A DNA stretch of 64,000 nucleotides from a virus (IMGVR_UViG_3300030099_006944:96001-160000); one strand, 5' to 3'; numbered from the stretch's first letter, positions 3,725 through 59,452 are shown. Numbers and translations: made by a program. Notes: a model not told the origin generated them from the sequence alone.

Positions 3725-4286
3725 CATCACCCCCGAAGAAGAAGCAACTCCGCAAGAACAAGAAAACTCAATTAAGATCGAAATCATCGAGAAAGATGAG
3801 TTGGAATTCAATCTTAACCTGAGGAGTGCCTTAAATGGGGATCTTATGATTTTAGATCACAAGGACATTGATATCGTTGTACAACCAACCTCTAAAAAAG
3901 TAGTCACTTTTGCAAAAGAGATAACATCAGACGCAGTGTATGGTGCCGAATCTAGACTTCTAGAATATTTGAGAAGACAAGGTGTTATAAATTATGATTC
4001 AATTCAAGGTGGAAACGTATATGGATCTTTGGAAGGTCAGATTATGGACTCCAAATCTCATGATCCAATAAAAGTGGCTCTGCTTAAAATTTCTGAATGG
4101 ATGGAAACAGAGAAACCTTATATTTCTGGTACCACGGCATATGACGATATGCAGGATGATGCTTTGATCGATCCGGACAACGAATATTCGACAGAATTAG
4201 GTCAAGTACCACACGCTGCCGAAAAGGGCTCCATTGTTCAGAACAACCTTTTCGCTCCATACCTATATGGAAGATACACTTACTGA
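3708..4286 (+). CDS. Hypothetical protein
   Basis: 192-aa ORF with a GGAGG RBS, overlapping its neighbours. Confidence 0.7.
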   Translation: MSVKINITPEEEATPQEQENSIKIEIIEKDELEFNLNLRSALNGDLMILDHKDIDIVVQPTSKKVVTFAKEITSDAVYGAESRLLEYLRRQGVINYDSIQGGNVYGSLEGQIMDSKSHDPIKVALLKISEWMETEKPYISGTTAYDDMQDDALIDPDNEYSTELGQVPHAAEKGSIVQNNLFAPYLYGRYTY

Positions 4287-4996
4287 TGAAAAAACTACTA
4301 GAAAATTTTAAGAGCTTTTTGTCTGAGGACGAAAAAGAACCAATACCTTTACCGGACACTTCTAACATTGGACTTTTTCATGATCCGGATATAGACAATC
4401 ATGAGTTAATATTATATTATCTGACTCCGCGCGGACCCTTTCCATTTGCCGCATGCGGTATAGATCGCCTCAGCGAAAACAAGAAAGGTGAACAATGTAT
4501 ACCTGAGACATGGCATATGTCTTGGATATATGTTCATGAAACCTTTCAAGGTTCGGGTTGGAGTAAAATTTTATACGGACTGTCATTTAATTTGGTTAAT
4601 AAAGAAGGCGCAGGGCTAACATCCGATCATTGGTCTTCCACGTCAGACGATGCAAAAAGCCGCGCTTGGGATAAAATGATATCTCGTAATCAACTGGTTC
4701 CCAGAAAAACTCCGGGTACTCCTCCGACCGGAGGCCACTCTGAATTCGATTATGGTAAGGCCGGATTTAAGAAGACCCCTTTGGATCCCATGGATGACTG
4801 TCGCGAACCCGGAGGCGGAAAAGCAGCAACATCAACTAGTTGGATAATGAAAGGACACAGCTACTTTGATTCGATTTATGATGATCTAACTGAAAATCAT
4901 GATCTGCTTATGTCAGCAGTACCCAATCGTGAACAAGTGGAACGAAGACTATCAGACGTTGCCGCTGATGAATTTGAAGTTGCTTATAGGGGGTAA
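4286..4996 (+). CDS. GNAT-like (acetyltransferase-fold) protein with a putative capsid-targeting leader
   Basis: MSWIYVHETFQGSGWSKILY resembles GNAT motif A (V-x-x-x-x-Q/R-G-x-G-x-x-x-x-L). N-terminus is MKKLLENFKSFLSE. Confidence 0.5.
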   Translation: MKKLLENFKSFLSEDEKEPIPLPDTSNIGLFHDPDIDNHELILYYLTPRGPFPFAACGIDRLSENKKGEQCIPETWHMSWIYVHETFQGSGWSKILYGLSFNLVNKEGAGLTSDHWSSTSDDAKSRAWDKMISRNQLVPRKTPGTPPTGGHSEFDYGKAGFKKTPLDPMDDCREPGGGKAATSTSWIMKGHSYFDSIYDDLTENHDLLMSAVPNREQVERRLSDVAADEFEVAYRG

Positions 4997-5417: not shown

Positions 5418-6026
5418 ATGTCTAAAACTTTATTAAGAGAATTCTATGCTTTATGTGAGGGTGGTATTTGTCAAGATCTTTTAACCGAAAGAGAAAAAAG
5501 GGAAATGGAAAATGGCGTTCTTTATTTATCAGGTCGTTTGCAAACTGCTGACAAGCAAAACGGAAATGGTCGGGTCTATCCTCACGAAGTCCTCAAAAGA
5601 GAGGTCAACAACTATATGAATGTAGTCAAAGACAATCGTGCTTGTGGTGAACTTGATCATCCGGATGATTCTGTTGTTAATCTTAAAAACGTTTCCCACA
5701 TCATAACTGATATATGGTGGGAAGGAAAGGATGTTATGGGCAAAATCAAAGTGCTCGATACCCCTTCCGGAAGGATCTTGAAAGATCTAGTGAATGCTGG
5801 TGTTAAACTCGGAATATCATCCAGAGGGTTAGGGTCAGTTAGAGAGAGTGCCGGGCAGACTGTTGTTGAAAATGATTTTCAATTAATTTGTTTTGATATG
5901 GTTTCCGAACCTTCAACTCCAAATGCTTATGTCTATCCAAAAGGGCAACAAAATGTATCTTCTAGGCTCAGAGAAGTTAAAGAAAATAGCATTAATGATC
6001 TATTTAAAAAGATCCTAGGAGATTAA
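5418..6026 (+). CDS. Prohead core protease (T4 gp21-like)
   Basis: Motifs QNGNGRVYP, GELDHP, GVKLGISSRGLGS (catalytic Ser) and FDMVSEPSTPNA. Confidence 0.93.
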   Translation: MSKTLLREFYALCEGGICQDLLTEREKREMENGVLYLSGRLQTADKQNGNGRVYPHEVLKREVNNYMNVVKDNRACGELDHPDDSVVNLKNVSHIITDIWWEGKDVMGKIKVLDTPSGRILKDLVNAGVKLGISSRGLGSVRESAGQTVVENDFQLICFDMVSEPSTPNAYVYPKGQQNVSSRLREVKENSINDLFKKILGD

Positions 6027-6030
6027 ATAA

Positions 6031-6270
6031 ATGAAAATAAAAAAAGACCGATTGGTACAAATTATCAAAGAGGAGCTTGATGATTATCAAATGTCAATGG
6101 CACAAGATGATCCGCAAGAATTCATGGCAGGAATGAAATCACAAGAAAGAATCAAGCAGATTGATATTCTAATCGCGGAACTACAAAGAGAAAAAGAAAT
6201 GTTGTTGATGAACATTGATTCTGGTGAGGTCACCTTTGATCAATCAAATACGCGGAGCCCAAATGAATAA
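6031..6270 (+). CDS. Small protein with leader MKIKKDRLVQIIKEE (putative internal head protein)
   Basis: GGAG RBS; leader pattern shared with 48242 and 57875. Confidence 0.55.
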   Translation: MKIKKDRLVQIIKEELDDYQMSMAQDDPQEFMAGMKSQERIKQIDILIAELQREKEMLLMNIDSGEVTFDQSNTRSPNE

Positions 6271-6688: not shown

Positions 6689-6901
6689 ATGGCTACAAAT
6701 CATATAGAAAAACCTCGAAAGAATGAGGACCCAAATCGATTTATAAAAAGATTTATAAAAAAATGTAAGAAACTTGGCATAATTGACGAGGTTAAAGAGA
6801 GACGATATCACACTAAACCATCCGTAAAAAAACGACTCGCCAAGAAACGAGCGATCGCTAGACATAAGAAAGAACAGCGAAAAAGACAAAGAAGTAACTA
6901 G
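6689..6901 (+). CDS. rpsU: Ribosomal protein bS21 homologue
   Basis: 70 aa and highly basic; pattern KNE-x4-IKRFIKKCKKLGIIDEVKERRYHTKPSVKKR matches bS21 (LRRFKR...E.R.REFYEKP..KRK). Confidence 0.85.
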   Translation: MATNHIEKPRKNEDPNRFIKRFIKKCKKLGIIDEVKERRYHTKPSVKKRLAKKRAIARHKKEQRKRQRSN

Positions 6902-16358: not shown

Positions 16359-18221
16359 ATGTCTATTGTAGAAAAATTAACCGAAGGTATCGTGAACCGC
16401 GATATGGCCCAAGAAGGCGCTGCTCTTCTTAACAAATGGGGTCAAACTGGTTTGCTTGAAGGCCTTCAAAATGATCACCAGAAGAGCACTATGGCTCGTC
16501 TTTTGGAAAACCAAGCGAAGGAACTTCTTCGTGAGGCTTCTTCATTGGGTGCTGGTGACGTAGAAGGTTTCGCTGCTGTTGCCTTCCCTATCGTTCGTCG
16601 TGTATTCGCCGGACTTATTGCTAACGATCTTGTTAGTGTTCAGCCGATGTCACTCCCTAGTGGACTGATCTTCTTCCTTGACTTCTCTTTTGGAGATCAA
16701 GAAGGTGGAAACGGTGTTTCTGGCTCTCGTATGGGTAACACACAAGGTGGTACTGAATCTATCTATGGTACTGATAAACTTGGTTCAGAAGTTATCACCG
16801 GTGTTGGACTTACAGATAGTCTCAAAGGTGATCTTTCTGGTCCCGGCCGAAGTGGTATGGTCGGATACGCTTACGCTTCTCCAAGTGGAAGTAACGTTGC
16901 TGCTTTTACTAACAGCGATCACATTAAAGTACGCTCTGCTTTCAAACTAGATGGAAGTGTATCTGAGACTCGTGCTAAGTACATTCAATATGATCCGGAT
17001 CTACTAGCATCAACTACTTTGGGTGTTGTCGTTGTCGACGTTAACCAAGCGGAGATTGAAAGTGTTGCAGACGCCGCTGACGCAGATTTTGACAACTTGT
17101 CTGCTTTTGTATTTGATAAAGCAGCACTTCTTACTTACTTAAATGGAGTAACTGGTGGTTCTGCAATTGGCACTATTACTGCTGTTGCTAATATATCTCA
17201 AGTACGTCGTCTAACTAGAAAAGTTGCTGCTGCTGATTCCGCTACTGGTGCCGCTGCTGTGCGTTTTGTCATCTCTTTGGACGAACCAGCACAAATCACA
17301 ACAGAATCTGATACAGCAACTAATGGTGCTGGTGACCTTGCTATTGGAAAACTAAGTTTCCCAATCGTAGACCACCTTCCTGCTGCTGGTACTGTTGGAG
17401 CCGTTGGTTCTTCTAGTAACAACTTTGCTTTGGAAGGCTCCGAGAATATTCCGGAAATCGACATCAAGGTAGATTCAACTGCCATCACAGCGCAAACCAA
17501 GAAGTTGAAAGCCAAGTGGACTCCTGAATTGGGTCAAGACTTGAACGCTTACCACAACTTGGATGCTGAGGTTGAGTTGACTTCTATTCTTTCTGAGCAA
17601 ATCGCTCTGGAAATCGATCGCGAAATTCTTTCTGACTTGGTACGTGGTGCTACCGCTGCTACTTATTACTGGTCTCGTTCTCCGGGTCTCTTCGTTAACC
17701 GTTCAACTGGTGCGGAATTGGGCGCTACTGCTGCTGCTCCTGACTTCACCGGTACTGTTAGTGAATGGTATGAGACTCTCATTGAAACTATCAATGATGT
17801 TTCTGCTCAGATCCACAGAAAGACTCTTCGTGGTGGTGCTAACTATGTTGTTGTGTCTCCTGAGGGCGCTAACATTCTCGAATTCACTTCTGGATTCCGT
17901 GCTAATGTTACTGCTGACGCTGACAAAGGCGACATCGGCGCTGTTAAGGCTGGTTCATTGAGTCGTAAGTTTGACGTTATCGTTGATCCTTACTTCCCAC
18001 GTAACCTTATATTGGTTGGTCGTAAAGGTTCTTCTTTCCTTGAAAGTGGATACGTTTATGCTCCATACGTGCCTCTGCAAACTACACCAACAATCTTCGG
18101 GCCTGAAGACTTCGTTCCTCGTAAAGGGGTAATGACTCGTTATGCCAAGAAGATGGTTCGTCCTGATATGTATGGCCTTGTCATCATTCGCGGATTGCTC
18201 GGTGAGTCCGGTGCTTCCTAA
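16359..18221 (+). CDS. Major capsid protein (T4 gp23-like)
   Basis: Motifs VSVQPMSLPSGLIF, KLKAKWTPELGQDLNAYHNLDAEVELTSILSEQIALEIDREI and YAPYVPLQ...GVMTRY. Confidence 0.96.
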   Translation: MSIVEKLTEGIVNRDMAQEGAALLNKWGQTGLLEGLQNDHQKSTMARLLENQAKELLREASSLGAGDVEGFAAVAFPIVRRVFAGLIANDLVSVQPMSLPSGLIFFLDFSFGDQEGGNGVSGSRMGNTQGGTESIYGTDKLGSEVITGVGLTDSLKGDLSGPGRSGMVGYAYASPSGSNVAAFTNSDHIKVRSAFKLDGSVSETRAKYIQYDPDLLASTTLGVVVVDVNQAEIESVADAADADFDNLSAFVFDKAALLTYLNGVTGGSAIGTITAVANISQVRRLTRKVAAADSATGAAAVRFVISLDEPAQITTESDTATNGAGDLAIGKLSFPIVDHLPAAGTVGAVGSSSNNFALEGSENIPEIDIKVDSTAITAQTKKLKAKWTPELGQDLNAYHNLDAEVELTSILSEQIALEIDREILSDLVRGATAATYYWSRSPGLFVNRSTGAELGATAAAPDFTGTVSEWYETLIETINDVSAQIHRKTLRGGANYVVVSPEGANILEFTSGFRANVTADADKGDIGAVKAGSLSRKFDVIVDPYFPRNLILVGRKGSSFLESGYVYAPYVPLQTTPTIFGPEDFVPRKGVMTRYAKKMVRPDMYGLVIIRGLLGESGAS

Positions 18222-21877: not shown

Positions 21878-24800
21878 ATGGCTAAAAAATTTGATTTCCT
21901 ATCACCCGGAATTGAAATGCGGGAGATTGACCAAAGCGGGATTGCTACCCAAAGAGACGAAGAAGGACCGATCATTATCGGCCGTACTCGCAAAGGGCCA
22001 GCAAACAAGCCGGTTAAAATTAGAAACTTAGATGATTATATCGCTGTTTTCGGTGCACCAGTTGCTGGTGGTACCGGTGATCAAGGCGATATTTGGAGAG
22101 AAGGTAATACTACCGGTCCTACTTATGCTGCGTATGCTGCGCAAGCTTGGTTGGCATCAGAAGAATCACCAATCGTAATGGTTAGAGTTGCCGGCGAGCA
22201 ACACCCAAATGCTGCTGATGCTGGTAAAGCTGGATGGGCTCTTAGTGCATCTGTATCTTCTACTAACAGTACTAACAGTACAGCTTACGGGCTTTTTCTT
22301 TGTGATTCTGGATCCAAAGCAATGGGGACTGGTTCACTGGCTGCTGTAATATACTGTAACAGGGGCTATATGGGGTTGACAGGTAAAGCCGCGGCTGACC
22401 CGGGCGGTTCTGACGTGATTGAAGCAGGGACTTTGATCAAATCTAACGCCTCAAATTATGGATTCTCTCTTAAAGTTTATGATCAAGATGGAACCCTTAA
22501 AGAATCTCCATCGTTTAATTTCAGCAGAAACTCTTCACAATATATTAGAAGCGTCCTCAACACCAACCCTCAGTTGGTCAATGAGACTATGATAAGTAGT
22601 GCCGATAGAAAGACTTACTGGTTGGGTGAAACGTTCAATAGAGCGATCGAAGACAATCTAAGTAACTCTGCTTCCGGTGAAGTATATGGTATCTTGTTGC
22701 CACTAGTTAGTGGATCATTGTCGGGTAACAACTGGGCTGATAGAAAACAAGCAGCACAAGAAGCTAAGTCTGGGTGGGTTTTCTCTCAAAAAGAAACTAA
22801 CCAAGTTTACTTGTTCCGTCTTAAATGTCTGCATGTCGGAGACGACTTCCAAAAGAATCACATGATTGCAATTGAAAACATCAGAGAACCTAGTAACAGA
22901 AACGTTGATGCTTATGGTACTTTCTCTGTTGCGATTCTGGATCTAAACGGAACAGCAATTGAGAGATACAACAACCTTAACTTGAACCCTGCTTCTCCAA
23001 ACTATATTGCAAAAGTTATCGGAGATCAATATCAGTCTTGGGACAACACCAACCGTCGTTACAGAACATATGGTGACTACCCTAATCGCTCTGACTTGGT
23101 TTATGTCGAGGTTAATCAAAATATCGCTGACGGTGGTGGCGGTGGATTATTACCAGCCGGTTTCAAAGGACCAGTTCGTCCGAAAGGATTCACTATCATG
23201 GATGGTCGTGATGGAGCATTGACTTTGGGACACGCTGATCCCGGAAATCCTGCTACCTTACTTTTCATCTGGAACGGAACTGCCGAAGATGATGTAACTA
23301 GTGGAAGACAGGCCGCATTCACAGCTAATGGAACAGCCTATACTATCACCTTTACTGATGGTGCGACGGATGCCACATCTTTTTCTGGTGGCGCTGCTAC
23401 ATTGAAAGCAAACCATACTAGTCAAGCTTCAATCCGGACAGCCTTAACTACTCTTCTAGACTCTATCAGTGGCTATTCTGCCTATGAAGACGGAAACACT
23501 GTTGTTATGATTTCTGATGTTGTTGTCGCTTCGACATACGATTTCAGTTCAGTTAGTGAGAACATAAGTCCACTTTCTATATCAGCGATCGCTGGTTCAG
23601 ATGAAACAGTGGATGGAGGTGTTTTCGCGAAAGGTAACGATGTTACATTGATTACCGGTGGTACCGCCACTGAGTTTGCTGCTGGACCAGTTGGCTACAC
23701 GGCCTCCTTCAATTTCCCAGCAATTCCACTTCGATCTGGTGGTACTGATGGTGGCGCTGCTGATCCATATCGTTGTTACTGGGGGATCCGTCCAAAACTG
23801 TCGGCTACCTCTCCAACAAATGATGCGGACTACTGCGATTACCTTCGTGGGCTTAATGCAATATCTGATAGCTTTGCTCCCGGTAACGATGATTTTGAGC
23901 ACTCCATTTGCTTCTCGTTGGACGATATCCTAGTCAATACTGATGACAACACTGTACGTTACATTAGCGGCTCATATGAGCGCGCTGACAGCGCCAGCAC
24001 TGACCCATCATACACAAAGGGTACCGGATCATTTGGAGACCTTCTAGACCTAAATGTGCGCCAATTCTTGATGCCTATGTGGGGTGGATCTGACGGTCTT
24101 GATATTACTGAGAAAGAACCTCTTCGAAATGGATTGATTGGAACGTCTTGGTCTGAGACTACAAATCATGTACAATACTCTTTGAATAAAGCTATCGATG
24201 CTGTTAAGGATCCAGAAGTAGTACCAGCTAATCTTTTGTTAGCTCCCGGTATCCGCGCTCCTTTGATCACTAACAAATTGATCAGTACTGCTGAGTCTCG
24301 TAAAGATGTTTTGGCTATCATTGATATTGAAAATGATTACATGCCAACACACGAATCTACTGATAGTGCTTCTTCCAGACTAGGTTCTGTTACTAGTGCA
24401 GTATCAACATTGAAAGGTAGAAACCTTAATTCAAGTTATGCTTGTTGCTTCTACCCTTGGGTTCAAATCGCTGACAACCTGAGCGGCGGACATTATGTAT
24501 GGATTCCATCTTCTGTTGCTGGGCTTGGCGCTATGGCTAAATCCCAAGCAAAATCAGATGTTTGGTTTGCTCCCGCTGGTTTCAATCGCGGTGGACTTGG
24601 AAACCTCGGAGGTTCGAGAGGACCAGCCGTAGTACAAGCGCGTCAACGTCTAGACTCTAACGAAAGAGATAAATTGTATGAAGTCAACATCAACCCAATT
24701 GCAACATTCCCAGCAGAAGGGGTTGTAATCTTCGGACAGAAAACACTTCAAGCAGGTACATCTGCATTGGATAGAATCAATGTTCGTAGACTGCTGCTTC

Positions 24801-25084
24801 ATCTTAAATCTAAGGTTAGTACTGTTTCTAGAAACCTTCTGTTCGACCAGAATATAGATTCTACTTGGGCTAGATTTAAGTCACAAGTTAATCCAATCTT
24901 GGCTAACGTACAAGCTAGATTTGGACTTACTGATTACAAACTAATATTGGATGAAACCACTACTACTGCTGACTTGATCGATCGTAACATCATGTATGCT
25001 AAGATTTATATCAAGCCTGCTCGCGCAATTGAATACATTGTCGTAGACTTTGTAATCACCAAAACCGGCGCTGATTTTGTATAA
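21878..25084 (+). CDS. Tail sheath protein (gp18-like)
   Basis: FLSPGIEMREIDQS at the N-terminus; WFAPAGFNRG, NINPIATFP.EGVVIFGQKTL and ALDRINVRRLL motifs. Confidence 0.95.
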   Translation: MAKKFDFLSPGIEMREIDQSGIATQRDEEGPIIIGRTRKGPANKPVKIRNLDDYIAVFGAPVAGGTGDQGDIWREGNTTGPTYAAYAAQAWLASEESPIVMVRVAGEQHPNAADAGKAGWALSASVSSTNSTNSTAYGLFLCDSGSKAMGTGSLAAVIYCNRGYMGLTGKAAADPGGSDVIEAGTLIKSNASNYGFSLKVYDQDGTLKESPSFNFSRNSSQYIRSVLNTNPQLVNETMISSADRKTYWLGETFNRAIEDNLSNSASGEVYGILLPLVSGSLSGNNWADRKQAAQEAKSGWVFSQKETNQVYLFRLKCLHVGDDFQKNHMIAIENIREPSNRNVDAYGTFSVAILDLNGTAIERYNNLNLNPASPNYIAKVIGDQYQSWDNTNRRYRTYGDYPNRSDLVYVEVNQNIADGGGGGLLPAGFKGPVRPKGFTIMDGRDGALTLGHADPGNPATLLFIWNGTAEDDVTSGRQAAFTANGTAYTITFTDGATDATSFSGGAATLKANHTSQASIRTALTTLLDSISGYSAYEDGNTVVMISDVVVASTYDFSSVSENISPLSISAIAGSDETVDGGVFAKGNDVTLITGGTATEFAAGPVGYTASFNFPAIPLRSGGTDGGAADPYRCYWGIRPKLSATSPTNDADYCDYLRGLNAISDSFAPGNDDFEHSICFSLDDILVNTDDNTVRYISGSYERADSASTDPSYTKGTGSFGDLLDLNVRQFLMPMWGGSDGLDITEKEPLRNGLIGTSWSETTNHVQYSLNKAIDAVKDPEVVPANLLLAPGIRAPLITNKLISTAESRKDVLAIIDIENDYMPTHESTDSASSRLGSVTSAVSTLKGRNLNSSYACCFYPWVQIADNLSGGHYVWIPSSVAGLGAMAKSQAKSDVWFAPAGFNRGGLGNLGGSRGPAVVQARQRLDSNERDKLYEVNINPIATFPAEGVVIFGQKTLQAGTSALDRINVRRLLLHLKSKVSTVSRNLLFDQNIDSTWARFKSQVNPILANVQARFGLTDYKLILDETTTTADLIDRNIMYAKIYIKPARAIEYIVVDFVITKTGADFV

Positions 25085-43316: not shown

Positions 43317-43469
43317 ATGAAAAAAATATTAATTAAACACGAAGGTATTCAATTTTACGGATATCTAGTCGAGGACAAGAAAACAAAGTTTATTGCTCTC
43401 AATGAATCAAAAGTAGTAACTTGGCATTACCCTAAGGTAGCGTACTCGTACACAATCGTGGAGGGGTAA
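43317..43469 (+). CDS. 50-aa hypothetical protein (absent from the ORF track)
   Basis: GGAGG RBS, own promoter at 43265; its TAA overlaps the next ATG. Confidence 0.6.
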   Translation: MKKILIKHEGIQFYGYLVEDKKTKFIALNESKVVTWHYPKVAYSYTIVEG

Positions 43470-49783: not shown

Positions 49784-50021
49784 GAAAGGGGACCTGTTCA
49801 AGTTCAACCAGTGCGGAACAGATTTGTTCTGTCATATATCGGGTTCCGTAGCCCTGATTGTTACTGATCCCGTGAAGATGTATGAATATGATTTTCATGA
49901 AATACCTGAGAAAAGAGAATATTATGTATACGATATAATAGTTTGTGGGCAACTATTTATGGAGATCCCGGAAGAGTTTTTAAAAAGGATAGCGTTAAAT
50001 GATGAAGAAGATACTAAATGA
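49776..50021 (+). CDS. Small KOW/SH3-like hypothetical protein
   Basis: MFKKGDLF pattern. Confidence 0.5.
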   Translation: MFKKGDLFKFNQCGTDLFCHISGSVALIVTDPVKMYEYDFHEIPEKREYYVYDIIVCGQLFMEIPEEFLKRIALNDEEDTK

Positions 50022-50520
50022 ATGGAAAAAATATTTGAAAGAAGGAACAGAATTTAATTACGAAGCCTTCATTAAAGAGTTTAATGAAATAATTGGTAAT
50101 TCCGTTTCTTATGATTCGTCCTTTTTCCGACTAGTACAAAAGAAGTACAATCCGTCTTCTCTAGAATCACTATCAGGACTGAAGCCTAGGAAAAAAAATA
50201 AAATCATCGGCCAACTTAATGCTGGCATGACTTACACTTGGCTGGAATATGTTGGTATACAAGGGGTGAAATTTGTAATTGAATACAAAGTCTCCAAATA
50301 TCTGAGTGAAGCGAAACCTGAAAATGTTGAATACCTGAAAAATAATTTTGAACAATTTTTCGAGATTTTGGCCCAATCATCTGCAACAAGACCAGATATA
50401 GAGTTTAACACTAGACATGTGGCTCTTGCTGGCCAATTAGGAGATTGGTGGATAGCCAATGATGGCTTGGAAATGTTTAAAGATGTGTTCGCAGCAAAAC
50501 TAAACATATCAGAGGTGTAA
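49999..50520 (+). CDS. Hypothetical protein with a capsid-targeting-like leader
   Basis: Leader MKKILNEWKKYLKE; late motif at 49952. Confidence 0.6.
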   Translation: MMKKILNEWKKYLKEGTEFNYEAFIKEFNEIIGNSVSYDSSFFRLVQKKYNPSSLESLSGLKPRKKNKIIGQLNAGMTYTWLEYVGIQGVKFVIEYKVSKYLSEAKPENVEYLKNNFEQFFEILAQSSATRPDIEFNTRHVALAGQLGDWWIANDGLEMFKDVFAAKLNISEV

Positions 50521-51318: not shown

Positions 51319-52193
51319 CTGGCATCGTTCCAGTTGCGGGACAATCTCTGGACTTTGATCAACCTTGGCCTGACTGCATGATGCCAATTGCTCCTGATTT
51401 TAGTTTGTTGGAAGCCGCTGTTGCTGAGTGTGCTTGGGCCGGCTGTGATACAATTTGGATAATTTGCAACGATAATATAGCAGCTCTAATAAAAAAGAAA
51501 ATTGGAGATTTCGTCGGTGATCCCGTGTGGGCTTATCGTAAATTCGATAAGTATCCCAACGAAAGTAAGCGTCAAATACCTGTTTATTATGTTCCGGTGC
51601 ATCCAAAAGACAGAGACAAGAGGGATTGCCTAGCTTGGAGTGTCTTGCATGGGTCTTTAACAGCATTCAAAGTATCAGACGAGTTGTCTAAGTGGGTTAT
51701 ACCAAACAAATATTATGTTAGCTTCCCTTATGGTTATTTTCCAGCCTATCAACTTCGAGAATATAGAAAAATTATTTCGTCCTCAAAGAACGTGTATATA
51801 ACATCTGACGACAAGTCAATGAAAGATAATTATTATTGCTCTTTTTCTTTTGGAAAGGACGAATTTATAGAATTTAGAAGGATAATCAGATCTGGTACAG
51901 GCCGTTGGAGACCCGGAGTTGACTATAAAGAGTATGACGCTTTACCAATTGAAGAAAGATGGTCAGCTAGGTTTTTTGAATTAGAACAAGTGTTTGAGCC
52001 ATTTGACACCGATCGAGCACAAAAAATACCAGTTGAAAATTTTTATAATATTGGCTCTTGGAAACAGTATAAACTCTTTATGTCCGAGAATCTCGATAAT
52101 GAAATAAAAAGGCCATCAAAAACAATTTTGTTAAATCAAGCTTACAAACCGATTGGGAAAAACTACTTAGAGGGTGATGCGGAAGAAACTTAA
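51276..52193 (+). CDS. Nucleotidyltransferase-like protein (GT-A / NTP-transferase fold, degenerate)
   Basis: AGIVPVAG....P..MMPI....LLEAAVAECAWAGCDTIWII mirrors the RmlA/GalU N-terminus. Confidence 0.6.
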   Translation: MEVTREDNTKYFHLAGIVPVAGQSLDFDQPWPDCMMPIAPDFSLLEAAVAECAWAGCDTIWIICNDNIAALIKKKIGDFVGDPVWAYRKFDKYPNESKRQIPVYYVPVHPKDRDKRDCLAWSVLHGSLTAFKVSDELSKWVIPNKYYVSFPYGYFPAYQLREYRKIISSSKNVYITSDDKSMKDNYYCSFSFGKDEFIEFRRIIRSGTGRWRPGVDYKEYDALPIEERWSARFFELEQVFEPFDTDRAQKIPVENFYNIGSWKQYKLFMSENLDNEIKRPSKTILLNQAYKPIGKNYLEGDAEET

Positions 52194-52782
52194 ATTTAAA
52201 AAATTATTAAATCATTATCGATCTCTCCAATATGAAGAAGAATACGTCAAAGAGGTTCTAAAAGAAGCTCATATTGAATTTGACGAATATTATAGGGAAT
52301 TTTGTAGAATATATCTTGTCAACATAGAGAGGTTGGAAAAAAAGAAAAATGATAGACTCAAAGCAGCCTACGAACAGAGTGAAAAACCATCCATGAAAGG
52401 CGTTGACGAAAAATTGAGAGCAAAAGATTATGATCATAAAAATGTTTTCAAGCAAATAGCCAGAAAACTCCATCCAGACAAATTAAGTGAGGACGATCCG
52501 AGACTTAAGGAATTTGAAGATGATTTCAAAACTGCTGCCGCCGGCATCAATGACGGAAACTGGGGTGACTTGTTTAATATTGCAGAGAAACACGATATTG
52601 ACATCAAGGATTATGACACAGTTAATGAATCAATTAAGGATTCAATCAAAGTTCTAGTTAAAAAAATAACAGAATTAAAAAATCAATATTCTTACATGTT
52701 TTACGAGTGTGAAGATGACAAGAACTGTAAAGATAATATAATAAAAAACTTTTTAAGACAAGTATTTGGACATAATTTATAA
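52174..52782 (+). CDS. J-domain-like protein
   Basis: KNVFKQIARKLHPDK (HPD motif) followed by the helix EFEDDFKTAAA. Confidence 0.7.
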   Translation: MMRKKLKFKKLLNHYRSLQYEEEYVKEVLKEAHIEFDEYYREFCRIYLVNIERLEKKKNDRLKAAYEQSEKPSMKGVDEKLRAKDYDHKNVFKQIARKLHPDKLSEDDPRLKEFEDDFKTAAAGINDGNWGDLFNIAEKHDIDIKDYDTVNESIKDSIKVLVKKITELKNQYSYMFYECEDDKNCKDNIIKNFLRQVFGHNL

Positions 52783-52838
52783 TTTATACTTGACAAATGA
52801 TACTAATTAGGTTATCTTATATATGTGAGGATAAAAAT

Positions 52839-53789
52839 ATGAAAGAAGTTATGAATCATTGGCGAGGCTTTATCAACCCAGATTTGAGCCCAATTATAAA
52901 AAAGAGACTGGAAGAGGCTCTCACCCGACGTCAGTTTTTAGCCGGCACTGCTGCTGTTGCTTTACTTTATGCGATCATGAATAGTGATTATTTTAAGGCA
53001 TTAACTGATCAACAGCAAGATGAATTAATTCAGGCTTCACCAGAGGAGTTAGCCTCATTGGGCCTTGAAGACCCTGCTTATATTAAAGCTGTTCGTGAAT
53101 ACGAGAGGGAAGAGACTGAATCCCCACGTGATAAGTATGAAGGTCTAAGTTCACGGGAAATTAAAGATCTGCAATTCTCTACGATTGGAAAGCTAATGAT
53201 AGCACCAACAAAACTACCAGATGATAGAGAATGGCGCCTAGCACCCACATCACAAAGCCAAGTCAGTGGTTATTATGCTTATGCAACAGAGTTGGATTTG
53301 GATCTTATAGCAGAAACAAACCCAGAGATAACAAAAGCCATGGATCTCGCATACGATTTTTATAAGGGGTTTGGTCTAACTAGATTGATGAAGTATGTAT
53401 ATGGACAACCGGAGTTTTTTAGCTATACTACAATGGAAAAAGCGAACGAAGGTCAGTTGTTTGACACCATTGAAACCGAGGCTACACAAACCAACTACTT
53501 GACCGGCAAGACAGAAAACATAAAAGTTAGGAAACTTCCATTAGCTTGGACAGTAGCTAATCGAGTGCTTATAGACCAAGTTTCTTTTTTAGAATCGGAA
53601 CTGCAAGAAGCAAAGACAGATGAAGAGATCGATGCTGTTCTAGAAAGGTATGGCGTAGGTACAGAATATGGTAGTGGTTATTCAAAAACATCGAAATATG
53701 ATGTGGTTAAAAAATTAAAAAGAATTGCCGGCAATTCTTTGAGTAGAATTGAAGATGACAGCAGGGTTGTTGGAAAACATAGTAATTAA
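52839..53789 (+). CDS. Hypothetical protein with a leader followed by a twin-arginine-like signal
   Basis: MKEVMNHWRGFIN...LEE-ALTRRQFLAGTAAVALL; start at ATG 52839. Confidence 0.65.
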   Translation: MKEVMNHWRGFINPDLSPIIKKRLEEALTRRQFLAGTAAVALLYAIMNSDYFKALTDQQQDELIQASPEELASLGLEDPAYIKAVREYEREETESPRDKYEGLSSREIKDLQFSTIGKLMIAPTKLPDDREWRLAPTSQSQVSGYYAYATELDLDLIAETNPEITKAMDLAYDFYKGFGLTRLMKYVYGQPEFFSYTTMEKANEGQLFDTIETEATQTNYLTGKTENIKVRKLPLAWTVANRVLIDQVSFLESELQEAKTDEEIDAVLERYGVGTEYGSGYSKTSKYDVVKKLKRIAGNSLSRIEDDSRVVGKHSN

Positions 53790-54291: not shown

Positions 54292-54363
54292 GCGGGTGTG
54301 GCTCAGTGGTAGAGCATCGCGTTGCCAACGCGAGGGTCGTGGGTTCGAATCCCATCACCCGCT
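54292..54363 (+). tRNA. tRNA-Gly(GCC), CCA not encoded
   Basis: Acceptor GCGGGTG/CACCCGC; D-arm GCTC/GAGC; anticodon stem TCGCG/CGCGA with GCC at 54324-54326; TTCGAAT T-loop; U73 discriminator. Confidence 0.95.
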
Positions 54364-54385: not shown

Positions 54386-54550
54386 ATGAAATATTTAAAC
54401 AGTAAATGGTTTACATTCTTTTGTGTATGCCTTAATTTTTATTTTGCCGTGCAATCCTTTTTCTTAGGAAATTGGCTTGTGTTTGGCATATGCAGCTTGT
54501 TTGCAGCAATCTGTGGTTATAGTTTTTGGTACCAAATGGAGGAAAAATGA
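54386..54550 (+). CDS. 54-aa two-helix membrane protein
   Basis: True start is ATG 54386 (GGAGG RBS); the longer track ORF runs through the tRNA. Confidence 0.6.
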   Translation: MKYLNSKWFTFFCVCLNFYFAVQSFFLGNWLVFGICSLFAAICGYSFWYQMEEK

Positions 54551-55428
54551 AATATCTATTACCTTTTTTATTAGCTTGCACGGAAGTGTCTATTAACAAA
54601 ATACCAACAGATCCTGTTGATACATCGAAACCCATAGCGGATACCACAGAACCTTCACAGCCGGCCTCTGAGCCCTCTGTGGAGCCTATGGAAGGTATCG
54701 GAGGGTATGTACACTACTATCTTCGTCAAGTGGCTTGTCCGGCTTGTATGGGCGAATCAAATGAGATTACGGTTGAGTTTGATGCAAGGTTTCACGATAG
54801 AACTTTTGATACCTACACAAGGCACATTCCCGAACAAGGTCAGTGCACCCAAAGTATAACTCAGATATGGCCAAACTTACCCCTAATAGATATGGGATCA
54901 GAAATAAAAGCCAGAGCTAACAATTCGACTATTCATGCGTACCGAACAAGCCAAAATAATTATTTTTATGCTTGGTATACAGATGCCTCTTATATAAGAG
55001 ACACTGTACACTCTATATCTCGCGAGGATAACTATGAATTTGCAGAGTTCACATCGTTTCATGGTTTCGATTACATTGAGCCTTATGAGTTACGCTTTGT
55101 AGATCCTTCGTATGCTTTTGCTGCTCCGATATACCGTTCTGGTGCGACTTTCTGGTGGGCTCCCTATGGTACCAACACTACCTTTACAATAACGCTAGCA
55201 GTATATACTCCTGACGGCTCATCGTTGTTAGGTTATGTTGCCTGTTCAGGTGGTGACTCTGGCATGATGACCGTTCCCGGACAATATTTGTCCTCTTATC
55301 CCTATGGGGCTCTTGTCGCTGTGCATATGGCTCGGCACAAAGTTGAGCTAGTACCATGGGAAGAACAAAACACTTTCCTTGAAACACATATGGAGTGGGA
55401 AGTAATAGGAACAGGACATATAGAATGA
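54547..55428 (+). CDS. Putative lipoprotein
   Basis: MKYLLPFLLA-C lipobox followed by a Pro/Ser/Glu/Thr linker (EPSQPASEPSVEP). Confidence 0.7.
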   Translation: MKYLLPFLLACTEVSINKIPTDPVDTSKPIADTTEPSQPASEPSVEPMEGIGGYVHYYLRQVACPACMGESNEITVEFDARFHDRTFDTYTRHIPEQGQCTQSITQIWPNLPLIDMGSEIKARANNSTIHAYRTSQNNYFYAWYTDASYIRDTVHSISREDNYEFAEFTSFHGFDYIEPYELRFVDPSYAFAAPIYRSGATFWWAPYGTNTTFTITLAVYTPDGSSLLGYVACSGGDSGMMTVPGQYLSSYPYGALVAVHMARHKVELVPWEEQNTFLETHMEWEVIGTGHIE

Positions 55429-55727
55429 CAAAGAAGCAAAAAGACATATTAATAAAAGATAGACAGAAGATCGGAAGACCAAAGAAATACAAAGTTGTTT
55501 TCTACAATGACGACTATACTCCTATGTTCTTGGTCACTTCGATATTGATAGAAGTATTTAATAAAGGATTACCCGAAGCACAATCGATTATGATGAGGGT
55601 ACACAAACAAGGAAAAGGAGTAGCAGGTGTCTATTCAAAAGAAATCGCACAAACAAAAGTTGAAACAACAAAAATGTATGCAAGAGAAGCAGGATACCCG
55701 CTCCACGCCGAAGCAGAACCAGAGTAG
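55425..55727 (+). CDS. clpS: ClpS N-degron adaptor
   Basis: YKVVFYNDDYTPM, VF.K...A..IMMRVH.QGKGVAGVY..EIAQTKV...AR..GYPL. Confidence 0.93.
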   Translation: MTKKQKDILIKDRQKIGRPKKYKVVFYNDDYTPMFLVTSILIEVFNKGLPEAQSIMMRVHKQGKGVAGVYSKEIAQTKVETTKMYAREAGYPLHAEAEPE

Positions 55728-56489: not shown

Positions 56490-57572
56490 ATGATTTTTAT
56501 ATGGAACTATGCCTTTAGGCATTTAATGAAAAAATATTGGGGAAACAGGTACAGATCGATACCAGTTTTCCATATGGAACTGGCAGGAGATATGCTGGGT
56601 AATTTTAGACATGATAAGAATGGTTTCAACACTATTTGTTTAGCCAACAACCAAGGACTTACAGATAGGCAATTGATGGGTGTTCTATTGCACGAAATGT
56701 GCCACCACGTTGCTTATGAGAAGCATGGAATGGATATTGATGCTCATGGGGCCGAATGGGAAACCGAGATGAAATTTGTAGGGTTTGAATATCCCATAGA
56801 CCAAGACACAGATGGCACAGAATTCTTTTCCGAAGAAGAGTATCAAGAGATACTTCGGTTATTACCCGGAGAACAAGAGACCTTTGAGTGGACTGACTCT
56901 TTGACTTTTATGAAAAAAATGGAAAAGAATTGTGTTGACTTAGTTTTAACCGACCCGCCATATATCATAAGTAAACCTTCGGGATTCAAAAGTGTTAAAG
57001 AAGGAGTGGAGCGTTTTGCTGTGTCGACCGAACATGGAGAATGGGACAAAGAGGAAAATTTTTCTCTGAAAGATTTGCGAGATTCCGTAAAAGAGTATTA
57101 TCGTGTATTAAAGAAGCACGGTACTGCTATTGTCTTTTGCGATCTCTGGAAGATCACAGACGTAAAGCGTATAATGGAAGAAGTAGGCTTTAAGCAAATT
57201 CGCTTCATAGAGTGGCTCAAAACAAATCCGGTCCCTCTCAATTCGAGCAGGAACTATCTTACAAACGCCAGAGAGGTCGCTCTCCTAGGCGTAAAGGTCA
57301 GCAAGCCCACGTTTCATTCGAGCTATGATAATGGGATTTATCAATTACCGATTTGCCACGAGAAAGGTAGGTTTCACCCAACACAAAAGCCTCTTATGCT
57401 GATGCAACTGTTAATAGAAAAACATAGTAACCCGGGAGACGTGGTATTGGACACATTCGCCGGAGCAGCGACCACGCTGCTCGCCGCCAAAAATTTAGGC
57501 CGTGGATTCCTTGGTTGTGAACTTGACGAAGAATTCTTTGTTAAAGCAGAGAAACGACTCTTCGATCTCTAA
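56490..57572 (+). CDS. SprT-like metalloprotease fused to a beta-class amino-DNA methyltransferase
   Basis: N-terminal LLHEMCHH...HGAEW (HExxH zincin); C-terminal LTDPPY, HPTQKP, VLDTFAGAATT, GCEL. Confidence 0.8.
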   Translation: MIFIWNYAFRHLMKKYWGNRYRSIPVFHMELAGDMLGNFRHDKNGFNTICLANNQGLTDRQLMGVLLHEMCHHVAYEKHGMDIDAHGAEWETEMKFVGFEYPIDQDTDGTEFFSEEEYQEILRLLPGEQETFEWTDSLTFMKKMEKNCVDLVLTDPPYIISKPSGFKSVKEGVERFAVSTEHGEWDKEENFSLKDLRDSVKEYYRVLKKHGTAIVFCDLWKITDVKRIMEEVGFKQIRFIEWLKTNPVPLNSSRNYLTNAREVALLGVKVSKPTFHSSYDNGIYQLPICHEKGRFHPTQKPLMLMQLLIEKHSNPGDVVLDTFAGAATTLLAAKNLGRGFLGCELDEEFFVKAEKRLFDL

Positions 57573-57602: not shown

Positions 57603-57878
57603 ATGGAGGCGATAATTGAGGGCTTGGCCCAATATGGACCATTGGGTCTTTGGACTGCATCTTTGCTTTGGATGAACTGGCAGCAACGCAAAGATCAAAA
57701 AGAAGATGAAGAAAGAGCAGCCGATCGATTGCGGTATTACCAAGAAAACATCATAACAAGACTTGAAAATCAAGAAAAAATGCTCGAAAGGGCACTAATT
57801 AAGTTGGACGACGGTCTTAGTGCTATGCGTGAAAAATATGCCGAAGATCGTATAATGCGAATGAAGGGTGACAAATGA
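57603..57878 (+). CDS. Small membrane-anchored coiled-coil protein (holin-like)
   Basis: LAQYGPLGLWTASLLWM hydrophobic N-terminus followed by a charged coiled coil. Confidence 0.45.
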   Translation: MEAIIEGLAQYGPLGLWTASLLWMNWQQRKDQKEDEERAADRLRYYQENIITRLENQEKMLERALIKLDDGLSAMREKYAEDRIMRMKGDK

Positions 57879-59452
57879 AAAAAAAGACATTATATAAATT
57901 AATCGAACAAGTCTTAAATGAGGCTGAAATTAAAGAACTAATGGCATCGGCAGACCCAGATTATATTGCGCAAGCTGTCGACATTGCCGTTATGCTTGGA
58001 GACGAAGAAAAACAACAAGTCATTGATGGATTTTTGCAGTTAAAGGCAGAAGATTTTTTATACAGTGCACACACCTTAATGGAAGAAGACGATGAATTCT
58101 CAGTAAGGCAGATGATGCCGATTTACGATACAGTCAAATACACACTCCTTAGTGTCTTTAGAAAACGCAGAATGCCTACTATCACTAGAAACCAAGACGC
58201 GTCACCATGGCTGTTGGAGCAAGCTTATTTGTTTCTGAATAGACTACATCAGAAAAAAGCGGCAGACAGAGACATGCTGTATTTAGCAAAAAACCCAGCA
58301 ACACCAGTTAAAGTATTGAATAGATTGAAAACATACTGGATGGCCGAGGTTAGAAAATCTGCCGAGAATAACTTATCATCACGTGATCCATTAGAAGAAA
58401 AAAAGAAGCGCAAGAAGAAAGAAAAGACCAAGAAGGATGCTTGCTATCATAAGGTGAAGTCGCGTTATGATGTTTGGCCGTCTGCTTATGCTTCCGGCGC
58501 TCTTGTTAAATGTCGCAAAGTCGGAGCAAAGAATTGGGGTAACTCAAAGAAAGAATCTTTGGGCGAAGCAGAAATTACCGACGACGAAAAAGAAGAACTG
58601 AAAGATATTTCAAAGCAACTAAAAGGCGCCGTTAAGGCTCACGGTAAGCAGGCAAAGACAATTGACAAAGCAATTAAAAAAGAAGGCAAGAAAAACTGCG
58701 GCTGCGGTCAAGATCCCTGTAAGACATATGGTATTCAAGAACAAAAAACTGAGGAACTTGAAGAGCGATGCCAAAAGGGATATAAGACCCACGACACGCA
58801 AAAAACAAAAGAAATGTTTGGAAGAACATATCGTAATTGTGTAAAAGCCGAAGAGGGCCAACTAGACGAAGAGGGATTGAAGGCTTGGTTTGATGATGCC
58901 GATGGTGATGGACAAAGCGGCTGGGAGCAAATTGGCGGTAAATACGATGGTAAACCGTGTGCCAAGCAGCCCGGACAAAAAACCAAGCCAAAATGTGCAT
59001 CCCCAGAAAAAGCAGCATCAATGACCAAAAAAGAAAGAGATAGTGCTGCTAGAAGAAAAAGAAAAAAAGATCCGAATCCAAATCGCAAAGGTAAAGCAAA
59101 AAACGTTAACACAGACCCAAAGAAAGAATCTCTATATAGAATCATCGAAGCGGTCATCGAAGAAATGAATAACGAACTTGCCGAGGCGGAACTGGAAGAA
59201 AAGAAAAATTCAAAGTGCACCAAGGCTACAAAGAAAGCATCATCCACCCGCAAAGGAAAGAAGTGGATGAAGTGTGTAAAGAGCGACAGTGGTGGATACA
59301 AAAGAATTCACTGGGGACAAAAGGGCGTAAGAGTTACCGGTAAATCTGGTAACACAAAAAGAAAGAAATCATTTAAGGCTAGACACAATTGTTCCAAGGC
59401 AAAATCGAATACACCACAAGGCCAAGCGTGTAAAGATTGGGCGGAAGAATAA
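57875..59452 (+). CDS. Modular basic, Cys-containing protein with a capsid-targeting-like leader
   Basis: Short K/C-rich modules separated by LEE/LGE/IQE/LDE; see findings. Confidence 0.7.
   Translation: MKKKTLYKLIEQVLNEAEIKELMASADPDYIAQAVDIAVMLGDEEKQQVIDGFLQLKAEDFLYSAHTLMEEDDEFSVRQMMPIYDTVKYTLLSVFRKRRMPTITRNQDASPWLLEQAYLFLNRLHQKKAADRDMLYLAKNPATPVKVLNRLKTYWMAEVRKSAENNLSSRDPLEEKKKRKKKEKTKKDACYHKVKSRYDVWPSAYASGALVKCRKVGAKNWGNSKKESLGEAEITDDEKEELKDISKQLKGAVKAHGKQAKTIDKAIKKEGKKNCGCGQDPCKTYGIQEQKTEELEERCQKGYKTHDTQKTKEMFGRTYRNCVKAEEGQLDEEGLKAWFDDADGDGQSGWEQIGGKYDGKPCAKQPGQKTKPKCASPEKAASMTKKERDSAARRKRKKDPNPNRKGKAKNVNTDPKKESLYRIIEAVIEEMNNELAEAELEEKKNSKCTKATKKASSTRKGKKWMKCVKSDSGGYKRIHWGQKGVRVTGKSGNTKRKKSFKARHNCSKAKSNTPQGQACKDWAEE

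Follow-up and report, generated by a model that had tools for sequence, protein, structure and literature searches.

Could a phage protein carry at its N-terminus two successive addresses, a first one for the virus head and a second one, uncovered only later, for the envelope of the next host cell? This question is raised by a gene at 52839..53789 (+ strand) of a 64,000-nucleotide stretch of viral DNA (IMGVR_UViG_3300030099_006944:96001-160000), here called the window, whose positions are counted from its first letter. The gene codes for a protein of 316 residues that belongs to a phage-only family. In a preliminary description of the locus, a leader ending in a prohead-protease site and, directly behind it, a twin-arginine translocation (Tat) signal had been read, and all the statements made there on the sequence are correct, including the leader and the T-R-R-Q-F-L motif at 52923-52940 (+ strand). 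The comparison with homologues suggests a bipartite N-terminus, formed by a capsid-loading leader (residues 1-26) that ends in L-x-E↓A (the arrow marking the predicted cut) and by a genuine Tat signal (residues 27-49). On the sequence side, two conserved modules, an invariant Glu-Ala junction, a protease gene, the modularity of the leader and the lack of such a junction in cellular Tat signals can be regarded as established.

The coding sequence starts with the ATG at 52839, ends with a TAA stop codon at 53787-53789, and is preceded by a ribosome-binding site GAGGA (52827..52831, + strand) located 7 nt before the ATG, whose GAGG is invariant in an alignment of five homologous loci. Another ATG lies in frame at 52797; the same start Met is found in all 21 close homologues (21/21), and this upstream codon is therefore ruled out as the start. 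The close homologues (subfamily A, 21 clusters, 46-100% identity) are all metagenomic and have no Pfam domain. A profile search of 1.84 billion representatives led to a distant subfamily B, at ~22% identity, which comprised 52 clusters after a further search.

Within the leader (MKEVMNHWRGFINPDLSPIIKKRLEE, residues 1-26, 52839..52916, + strand), a conserved MKxhhxxWRxF block is followed by a variable spacer and by a conserved R-L-x-E: residues M1, W8, R9, R23, L24 and E26 are invariant in the 21 sequences, and positions 12-22 vary, with an indel. The leader ends in the junction L24-E25-E26↓A27 (52908..52919, + strand), a predicted prohead-protease site of the L/I-x-E type. R23, L24, E26 and A27 are invariant in subfamily A; in subfamily B, the three residues before A-T-R-R read (I/L/M)-(D/E/S)-E in 52/52 sequences, with Glu at P1 in 52/52 and Ala at P1' in 43/52. 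The preliminary description had proposed to look in relatives for L-x-E directly before RRxFL, and this arrangement is indeed present: (L/I/M)-x-E, one or two residues and (S/T/K)-(R/K)-R follow each other in 21/21 members of subfamily A and in 52/52 full-length members of subfamily B, the junction being placed 2-3 residues ahead of RR in all of them. The two subfamilies have just seven invariant columns in common, namely E26, R31 and, in the fold core, A135, P136, G189, P234 and W237. Apart from the junction (21/21 and 51/51), no [LIM]-x-E is shared by all members of either subfamily, sites in the cargo part never being kept in more than 65%, and the junction is unchanged through a swap of leader type between the subfamilies: MKxhhxxW(R/K)xF heads subfamily A and two B members, and MKLxSKxLKxLIxEVxxE the other B members. 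Glu26, no less conserved than the fold core, and a junction that outlasts the change of leader type are the strongest arguments against export in the producing cell alone. In the cargo part of the family, [LI]-x-E occurs 27 times vs 42.9 expected, a ratio of 0.63 vs 1.17 genome-wide, which is a weak depletion, the sequences being related and single proteins not significant.

The same layout may exist in a second family. In an IMG/VR contig with gp32-like and UvsX-like genes (L035:4319-4990, - strand), an unrelated open reading frame (ORF) reads YEEELSEEELDE-L-TRRDFLKGAGAALGG, with the Tat motif right after L-D-E (...EELDE-L-TRRDFLKG). Counted from a possible TTG start, the motif comes after 27 aa; in the longer frame, which leaves the contig without offering another start, at least 51 aa precede it.

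Cellular signals served as a control. Among 120 TRRDFLKGA sites in bacterial and archaeal genomes, [LIM]-x-E stands just before the motif in two, the M being in both cases the start codon, and the nearest ATG lies at a median distance of 6.5 aa from TRR; neither the junction nor the long leader therefore belongs to Tat signals in general. This result bears on the most economical reading of the gene, an ordinary Tat substrate, made from an early promoter and exported, or anchored by its signal, by the host Tat system in the same infected cell. The protein would then be an early periplasmic factor like Spackle and Imm of phage T4, which the head protease never meets, and the leader a long n-region or an element with a role in chaperone binding, stability or translation. 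Such export in the producing cell is possible, if somewhat doubtful, and nearly as likely as the two-address route. It leaves unexplained, however, why Glu26 is conserved as strongly as the fold core, why the h-x-E-A junction stays when the leader type changes, why the same leaders stand on many proteins with no signal peptide, and why cellular Tat signals with the same core have no such junction.

The second module has the build of a Tat signal. In the 21 close homologues, R30, R31 and Q32 of the twin-arginine motif are invariant and F33 and L34 nearly so, and the motif runs into an uncharged, weakly hydrophobic h-region of 18 residues (Q32-S49, QFLAGTAAVALLYAIMNS, 52932..52985, + strand; mean Kyte-Doolittle (KD) value 1.31), in which G36, A38 and L43 are invariant and A45 nearly so. 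Conservation of RRxFL, central to the preliminary description, extends to the whole family: none of the 73 homologue clusters (21 close, 52 distant) has lost the motif, which appears in a few of them as a K-R variant and is worded (S/T)RRQF(L/M) in subfamily A and (T/K)-(R/K)-R-D/E-F-L-K, typically T-R-R-D-F-L-K, in full-length members of subfamily B. RR is found at residues 15-31 across the family (residue 30 in the target, 20-21 in subfamily B), followed by h-regions of 13-25 uncharged residues (13-21 in subfamily B; 16-25, mostly 18, in subfamily A) that are G/A-rich, with a mean KD of 0.6-1.6 and often a basic residue in the c-region. A possible signal-peptidase site in subfamily A is L43-Y-A45; the c-region of subfamily B is variable (A-F-A, L-Y-A, G-L-A or none).

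Profile searches point in the same direction. TAT_signal of Pfam matches 14/15 members and TIGR01409 12/15 (E<1), with best values of 4.5e-5 and 1.5e-5; these are the only families consistently matched, and a precomputed PF10518 match exists in 15 subfamily-B clusters. In a six-frame scan of the 187-kb genome the target is the sole TAT_signal match (20.4 bits, E 1.7e-4), and its motif is the sole one in the genome combining RR and an uncharged stretch near the start of a real gene. The Tat-like motif is not a chance feature, and the Tat signal is quite probably real. It is improbable that neither address works, the segment being a lineage-specific helix plus a Sec/YidC anchor whose likeness to Tat signals and protease sites is convergent or incidental. 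The scores of the target under the cut-off would fit that explanation, as would the origin of all members in one phage clade, whose conservation partly reflects shared ancestry; the motif is nevertheless conserved down to 22% pairwise identity, two independent hidden Markov models (HMMs) match most members, a single TAT_signal match is found in the genome, and the cellular TRRDFLKGA control speaks against it too.

A downstream start that would place RR at the N-terminus was considered and rejected, since in subfamily A the segment between residues 5 and 47 offers neither a Met nor another usable start. In four subfamily-B clusters (P0031, P0046, P0064 and P0065), E-M-K-R-R replaces E-A-T-R-R, so that Met directly precedes KRRDFLK, which fits either cleavage or an internal start giving a classic MKRRDFLK Tat N-terminus. 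No TAT_signal match was found in LR756508, a 484-kb record that, within the phage collection, gave the best capsid-protein match, and pattern scans of IMG/VR gave one locus for EATRRDFLK and two for TRRDFLKGA.

As for the first module, at least 17 further ORFs of the 187-kb genome begin with one of the two leader types, and two of these ORFs lie within the head-gene block. The type-1 leader (MKLTKxQLKxIIxEEL) starts 12 of the 231 ORFs, with 4 weaker matches elsewhere in 56,587 positions scanned; the type-2 leader starts at least 5 ORFs, and the leader class of the target also starts the ORFs at 4286-4996 and 49999-50520. An ORF of 79 aa directly after the protease gene (6031..6270, + strand) has the type-1 leader MKIKKDRLVQIIKEEL, and one of 236 aa between the portal and protease genes (4286..4996, + strand) has the type-2 leader MKKLLENFKSFLSE. 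From this distribution, the leaders are independent modules, common to otherwise unrelated proteins. Pfam and PHROG gave no annotation for the leader-bearing proteins, except for a NUDIX/PNK3P match in one doubtful type-2 candidate.

In T4, the prohead protease gp21 cleaves after L/I-x-E (PMC9026906), and capsid-targeting sequences (CTS) have 10-19 residues, the N-terminal part targeting the protein and P3 and P1 governing processing (PMC9026906; PMC3012670); CTS cargo leaves the head by ejection, along with the DNA, and is able to refold once inside the new cell (PMC9026906). The T4 leaders, as read from NC_000866, are MKTYQEFIAE↓A (ipII and ipIII), MKTFKEF-(12 aa)-ITE↓A (ipI), MLKEQLIAE↓A (gp22) and MEGLIE↓A (gp67). 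A head-packaging leader and a gp21-type protease were both premises of the preliminary description. For the former, the target leader is a shared module that appears to be built like the T4 capsid-targeting leaders; for the latter, the phage has a gp21-like prohead protease of the Peptidase_S77 family (5418..6026, + strand; PF03420 E 1.9e-34; phrog_207, head maturation protease, E 3.1e-61). This is the enzyme proposed for the cut, and the invariant Glu-Ala junction fits the rule of this protease family. The relatives' viral records searched for the S77 protease (n=3) were only 16-20% complete. From these sequences, the odds that the leader serves as a capsid-targeting sequence and is removed by the S77 protease appear about even. 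A search of the literature for CTS in cyanophages found nothing. The leader was also considered as a recognition tag for a radical-SAM enzyme, and this was rejected, the genome (100% complete by CheckV) having no PF04055 match.

Two proteins look like polyproteins jointed by protease sites. One is a leader-bearing protein of 724 aa (G000:C1:9853-12027, outside the window), in which a leader-like motif is repeated internally (QKLNKDYLFHMINEVLRE, at residue 381) and which has 19 [LI]-x-E sites vs 11 expected; the other is encoded by the ORF at 57875-59452, with 11 sites vs 4. The basic modules of the latter have homologues in cyanophages S-E7 and S-P4 that are annotated 'structural protein', but have no leader at the start, which makes this support no more than indirect. 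None of the longer polyprotein forms of the leader-plus-Tat segment scored, which is weak evidence.

From the two modules and the junction we infer packaging, a cut, ejection, Tat export and a function at the envelope. The precursor, some or all of it, would be taken into proheads through the leader, and the S77 prohead protease would cut after Glu26, leaving Ala-Leu-Thr-Arg-Arg-Gln-Phe-Leu as the new N-terminus. Together with the DNA, the trimmed protein would then enter the next cell by ejection and refold there, and the host TatABC would move the refolded protein to the periplasmic face of the inner membrane. Since Tat is the one general export pathway open to completed proteins that are already folded, it would suit a refolded one. 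At the envelope the non-enzymatic alpha/beta domain might, at a guess, act in immediate superinfection exclusion or in envelope protection; early-made precursor might also be exported in the producing cell. The full two-address route is a serious possibility that falls a little short of an even chance. More tentative is the proposal of a two-step address code of T4-type phages, in which a leader would load the protein into the head, the protease would uncover the Tat signal and the Tat system of the next host would export the protein to the periplasm; such a code may be general among these phages.

The cargo could also be packaged and make no use of Tat, the RR-hydrophobic stretch serving after ejection as a membrane anchor (by itself or through YidC or Sec) or as a blocker of TatBC, which is unlikely. 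Its packaging would rest on the same leader evidence as the two-address route, and the long stretch of subfamily A, with no clear A-x-A, could stay in the membrane; the G/A-rich h-regions of subfamily B, however, are too weakly hydrophobic for a stable transmembrane helix, and what is kept is the full S/T-R-R-x-F-L-K consensus, more than the positive charge, which an anchor would not need. The jamming of the translocase, raised in the preliminary description, has no support of its own.

The region upstream of the gene bears on the choice between the two-address route and export in the producing cell. A sigma70-like promoter of early type lies at 52790..52818 (+ strand; TTGACA at 52790-52795, 17 nt, TATCTT at 52813-52818), and CTTGACA-N15-GTTAnnTTATA is the only upstream element invariant across the five homologous loci. 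At least 12 non-structural genes have the same early promoter consensus directly upstream, often overlapping the previous stop codon. A regular early promoter CTTGACAAAC-N-GTTATATTAT is found genome-wide, for instance at 43317, 44478, 47935, 59520, 60520 and 62597 of the window. The 'late motif' reported at 52802 in the preliminary description is real: ACTAATTAGG (52802..52811, + strand) is a copy of a strand-biased motif of the genome, ACTA[AT]TTA[GA]. It is placed within the spacer of the sigma70-like promoter and, among the five loci, is kept only in the window and in L006. The motif has 18 forward and 2 reverse copies in the genome, 9 of them at most 60 nt and 12 at most 80 nt upstream of gene starts, many of these being tail, sheath and baseplate-side genes; for many copies the distance to the structural gene downstream is 12-62 nt. 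A T4 late box was rejected as an identification of ACTAATTAGG, which differs from the T4 late box TATAAATA.

In four related contigs the gene also stands in the same syntenic block, made up of genes for nucleotide metabolism and repair, in the order RNR, Hc1-like, ThyX, J-domain-like gene, then UvdE and PolIII-alpha. The promoter conserved in all five loci and this syntenic position both argue for export in the producing cell, as does RR at residues 15-31, a position that is usual for Tat signals (TATFIND-type rules) and that needs no unmasking. The position of the gene does not exclude packaging, because the T4 ip genes, which adjoin denV and e, also sit among non-structural genes.

Several considerations weigh against the two-address route. 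The conserved upstream element is an early promoter of sigma70 type, the late-type motif being present in only two of the five loci, and the syntenic position favors early synthesis in the infected cell. With RR at residue 30, within the normal range of n-regions, the uncut precursor would be usable by Tat, so that the signal need not be cryptic, and the tight spacing between junction and RR could merely keep the n-region short. Tat would also compete with packaging in the producing cell, and we know of no precedent for a hydrophobic signal inside a DNA-filled head. The HMM scores of the target are below the curated cut-offs of PF10518 and TIGR01409 (16.8 vs 22.7 and 15.0 vs 16.7, respectively; 20.4 in the six-frame scan). 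As to the leader, its likeness to a T4 CTS is too short for an E-value, the leader-bearing proteins have no annotated relatives (a tblastn search with one of them found no cultured relative), and as a class they show no depletion of [LI]-x-E (ratio 1.18 vs 1.17 for the genome). Finally, the clade is uncultured.

The part of the protein that would be delivered is a compact alpha/beta domain (residues 100-316, 53136..53786, + strand), predicted by AF2 with a pLDDT of 88.4 and a pTM of 0.86. The cargo columns invariant across the subfamilies (A135, P136, G189, P234 and W237) include no residues of catalytic type, and the domain seems to have a binding or structural role rather than an enzymatic one. 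The model of the cargo domain alone corresponds to no known fold (best PDB match Z 3.9); with the full-length model, Foldseek found no significant match in either PDB or BFVD, and the matches obtained VIA-wide were all helical and confined to residues 1-94 (Z up to 5.0). Pfam and PHROGs returned nothing besides TAT_signal for the target protein, tblastn against GenBank phages no match, and the ESM Atlas no usable match.

The parent virus record has 187,355 bp, is rated 100% complete by CheckV and has nearly all its genes on the + strand. The phage is a marine T4-type myovirus, with a T4-type portal (979-2913; Portal_T4 E 3.8e-75), a Gp23-type capsid protein (16359-18221; Gp23 E 4.7e-72), only ~32% identical to those of cultured T4-like phages, and a tail sheath (21878-25084); the non-structural genes (UvsX-like, DnaB, RNR, ThyX, UvdE and others) lie downstream of the head and tail genes. 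In the major capsid protein, whose N-terminus was aligned with T4 gp23, a candidate propeptide cut L57-R58-E59↓A60 (16527..16538, + strand) falls at the same position as the gp23 site, which we take to be LTE↓A, after residue 65. Between the protease and capsid genes, the head-gene block contains a homologue of ribosomal protein S21 (6689-6901; Pfam E 6.4e-12). A search of the genome for TatA/B/E encoded by the phage found none.

The upstream neighbour of the Tat-signal gene (52174-52782) contains an HPDK motif (KLHPDKLSEDDP) and has a weak DnaJ match (E 0.17, below the cut-off); its homologue in L030 was flagged 'DnaJ (faint)', and its synteny with the Tat-signal gene is kept. DnaK has been reported to bind Tat signals, and for this reason a phage J-domain co-chaperone beside a Tat substrate may be of interest. 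Directly 3' of the Tat-signal gene, the segment 53801-54363 comprises an ORF for a membrane protein of 59 aa, whose end lies inside a phage tmRNA (53954-54285, tag ANNNLYFEEALAA), followed by tRNA-Gly (54292-54363). ClpS, the N-degron adaptor, is encoded at 55395-55727 (Pfam E 7.6e-28), 1.6 kb downstream of the Tat-signal gene, and together with the tmRNA points to manipulation of host Clp proteolysis. Two further genes nearby code for a probable lipoprotein of 293 aa with no family match (54547-55428; start MKYLLPFLLAC, with a lipobox-like L-L-A-C) and for a SprT-like protease domain fused to an N6/N4 DNA methylase (56490-57572; Pfam E 1.8e-8 and 8.5e-36).

What would be new in the two-address protein is the combination of T4-like CTS cargo with a Tat signal, each part being of a known kind. 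Searches of the open literature brought up no Tat signal on any protein of phage virions or any ejected protein, and phage-encoded Tat substrates are hardly described in the literature searched. For the T4 internal proteins and Alt, the capsid-targeted cargo, the cytoplasm of the newly infected cell is the only known place of action; a Tat signal made N-terminal exactly at the protease cut would open the periplasm and envelope to injected cargo before any phage gene need be expressed, and would be the first route for a virion-delivered protein into the periplasm from the cytoplasmic side. It would allow the phage to exclude superinfecting phages, repair the envelope or evade defences at once, and would give the bacterial world a parallel to the bipartite transit peptides of chloroplasts. 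If only export in the producing cell held, the family would still be a large, undescribed, phage-only group of Tat substrates with a new fold.

Among known systems, the internal proteins of T4 share most with the first module. As in IPI, IPII, IPIII and Alt, proteins that are otherwise unrelated begin with a short leader, the protease is of the S77 family and the genes lie outside the head cluster. The two-part build of the IPI leader (MK, aromatics three apart, a variable spacer and h-x-E↓A) is seen again in the target, the aromatic pair at i and i+3 being W8/F11 here and Y4/F7 in T4, with Ala at P1' in both. The leaders described here are, however, longer (12-27 aa) and of two sequence types, and the T4 cargo acts in the cytoplasm and is not known to have an export signal behind the cut site. 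Spackle (Sp) and Imm, the early envelope proteins of T4 superinfection exclusion, resemble the target as non-enzyme phage proteins from early promoters that are placed at the inner membrane or in the periplasm, and offer a functional model for an ordinary Tat substrate exported in the producing cell; unlike the target, they have Sec-type signals or membrane helices and no leader, and show no likeness in sequence or fold to the cargo domain.

The second module is comparable to bacterial Tat signals (PF10518 and TIGR01409, including uncleaved anchors such as those of Rieske proteins), which share S/T-R-R-x-F-L-K, a weakly hydrophobic, G/A-rich h-region and often a basic c-region. Cellular signals with the same core differ in that they start close to TRR (a median of 6.5 residues before it) and have no h-x-E junction, and the target scores below the curated cut-offs for the class. 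For the combination of both modules, the nearest case is found in chloroplasts, where substrates of the thylakoid-lumen Tat (delta-pH) pathway, such as OE23 and OE17, have bipartite transit peptides whose first signal is removed by the stromal processing peptidase. Two signals in series, with a protease whose removal of the first leaves a twin-arginine signal at the N-terminus, would be common to both; the setting there is the stroma and its processing peptidase, whereas here it would be the capsid, the prohead protease and a passage between cells. This likeness is to be read as an analogy, not as homology, and in that sense the chloroplast peptides would be the closest mechanistic parallel to the two-address protein.

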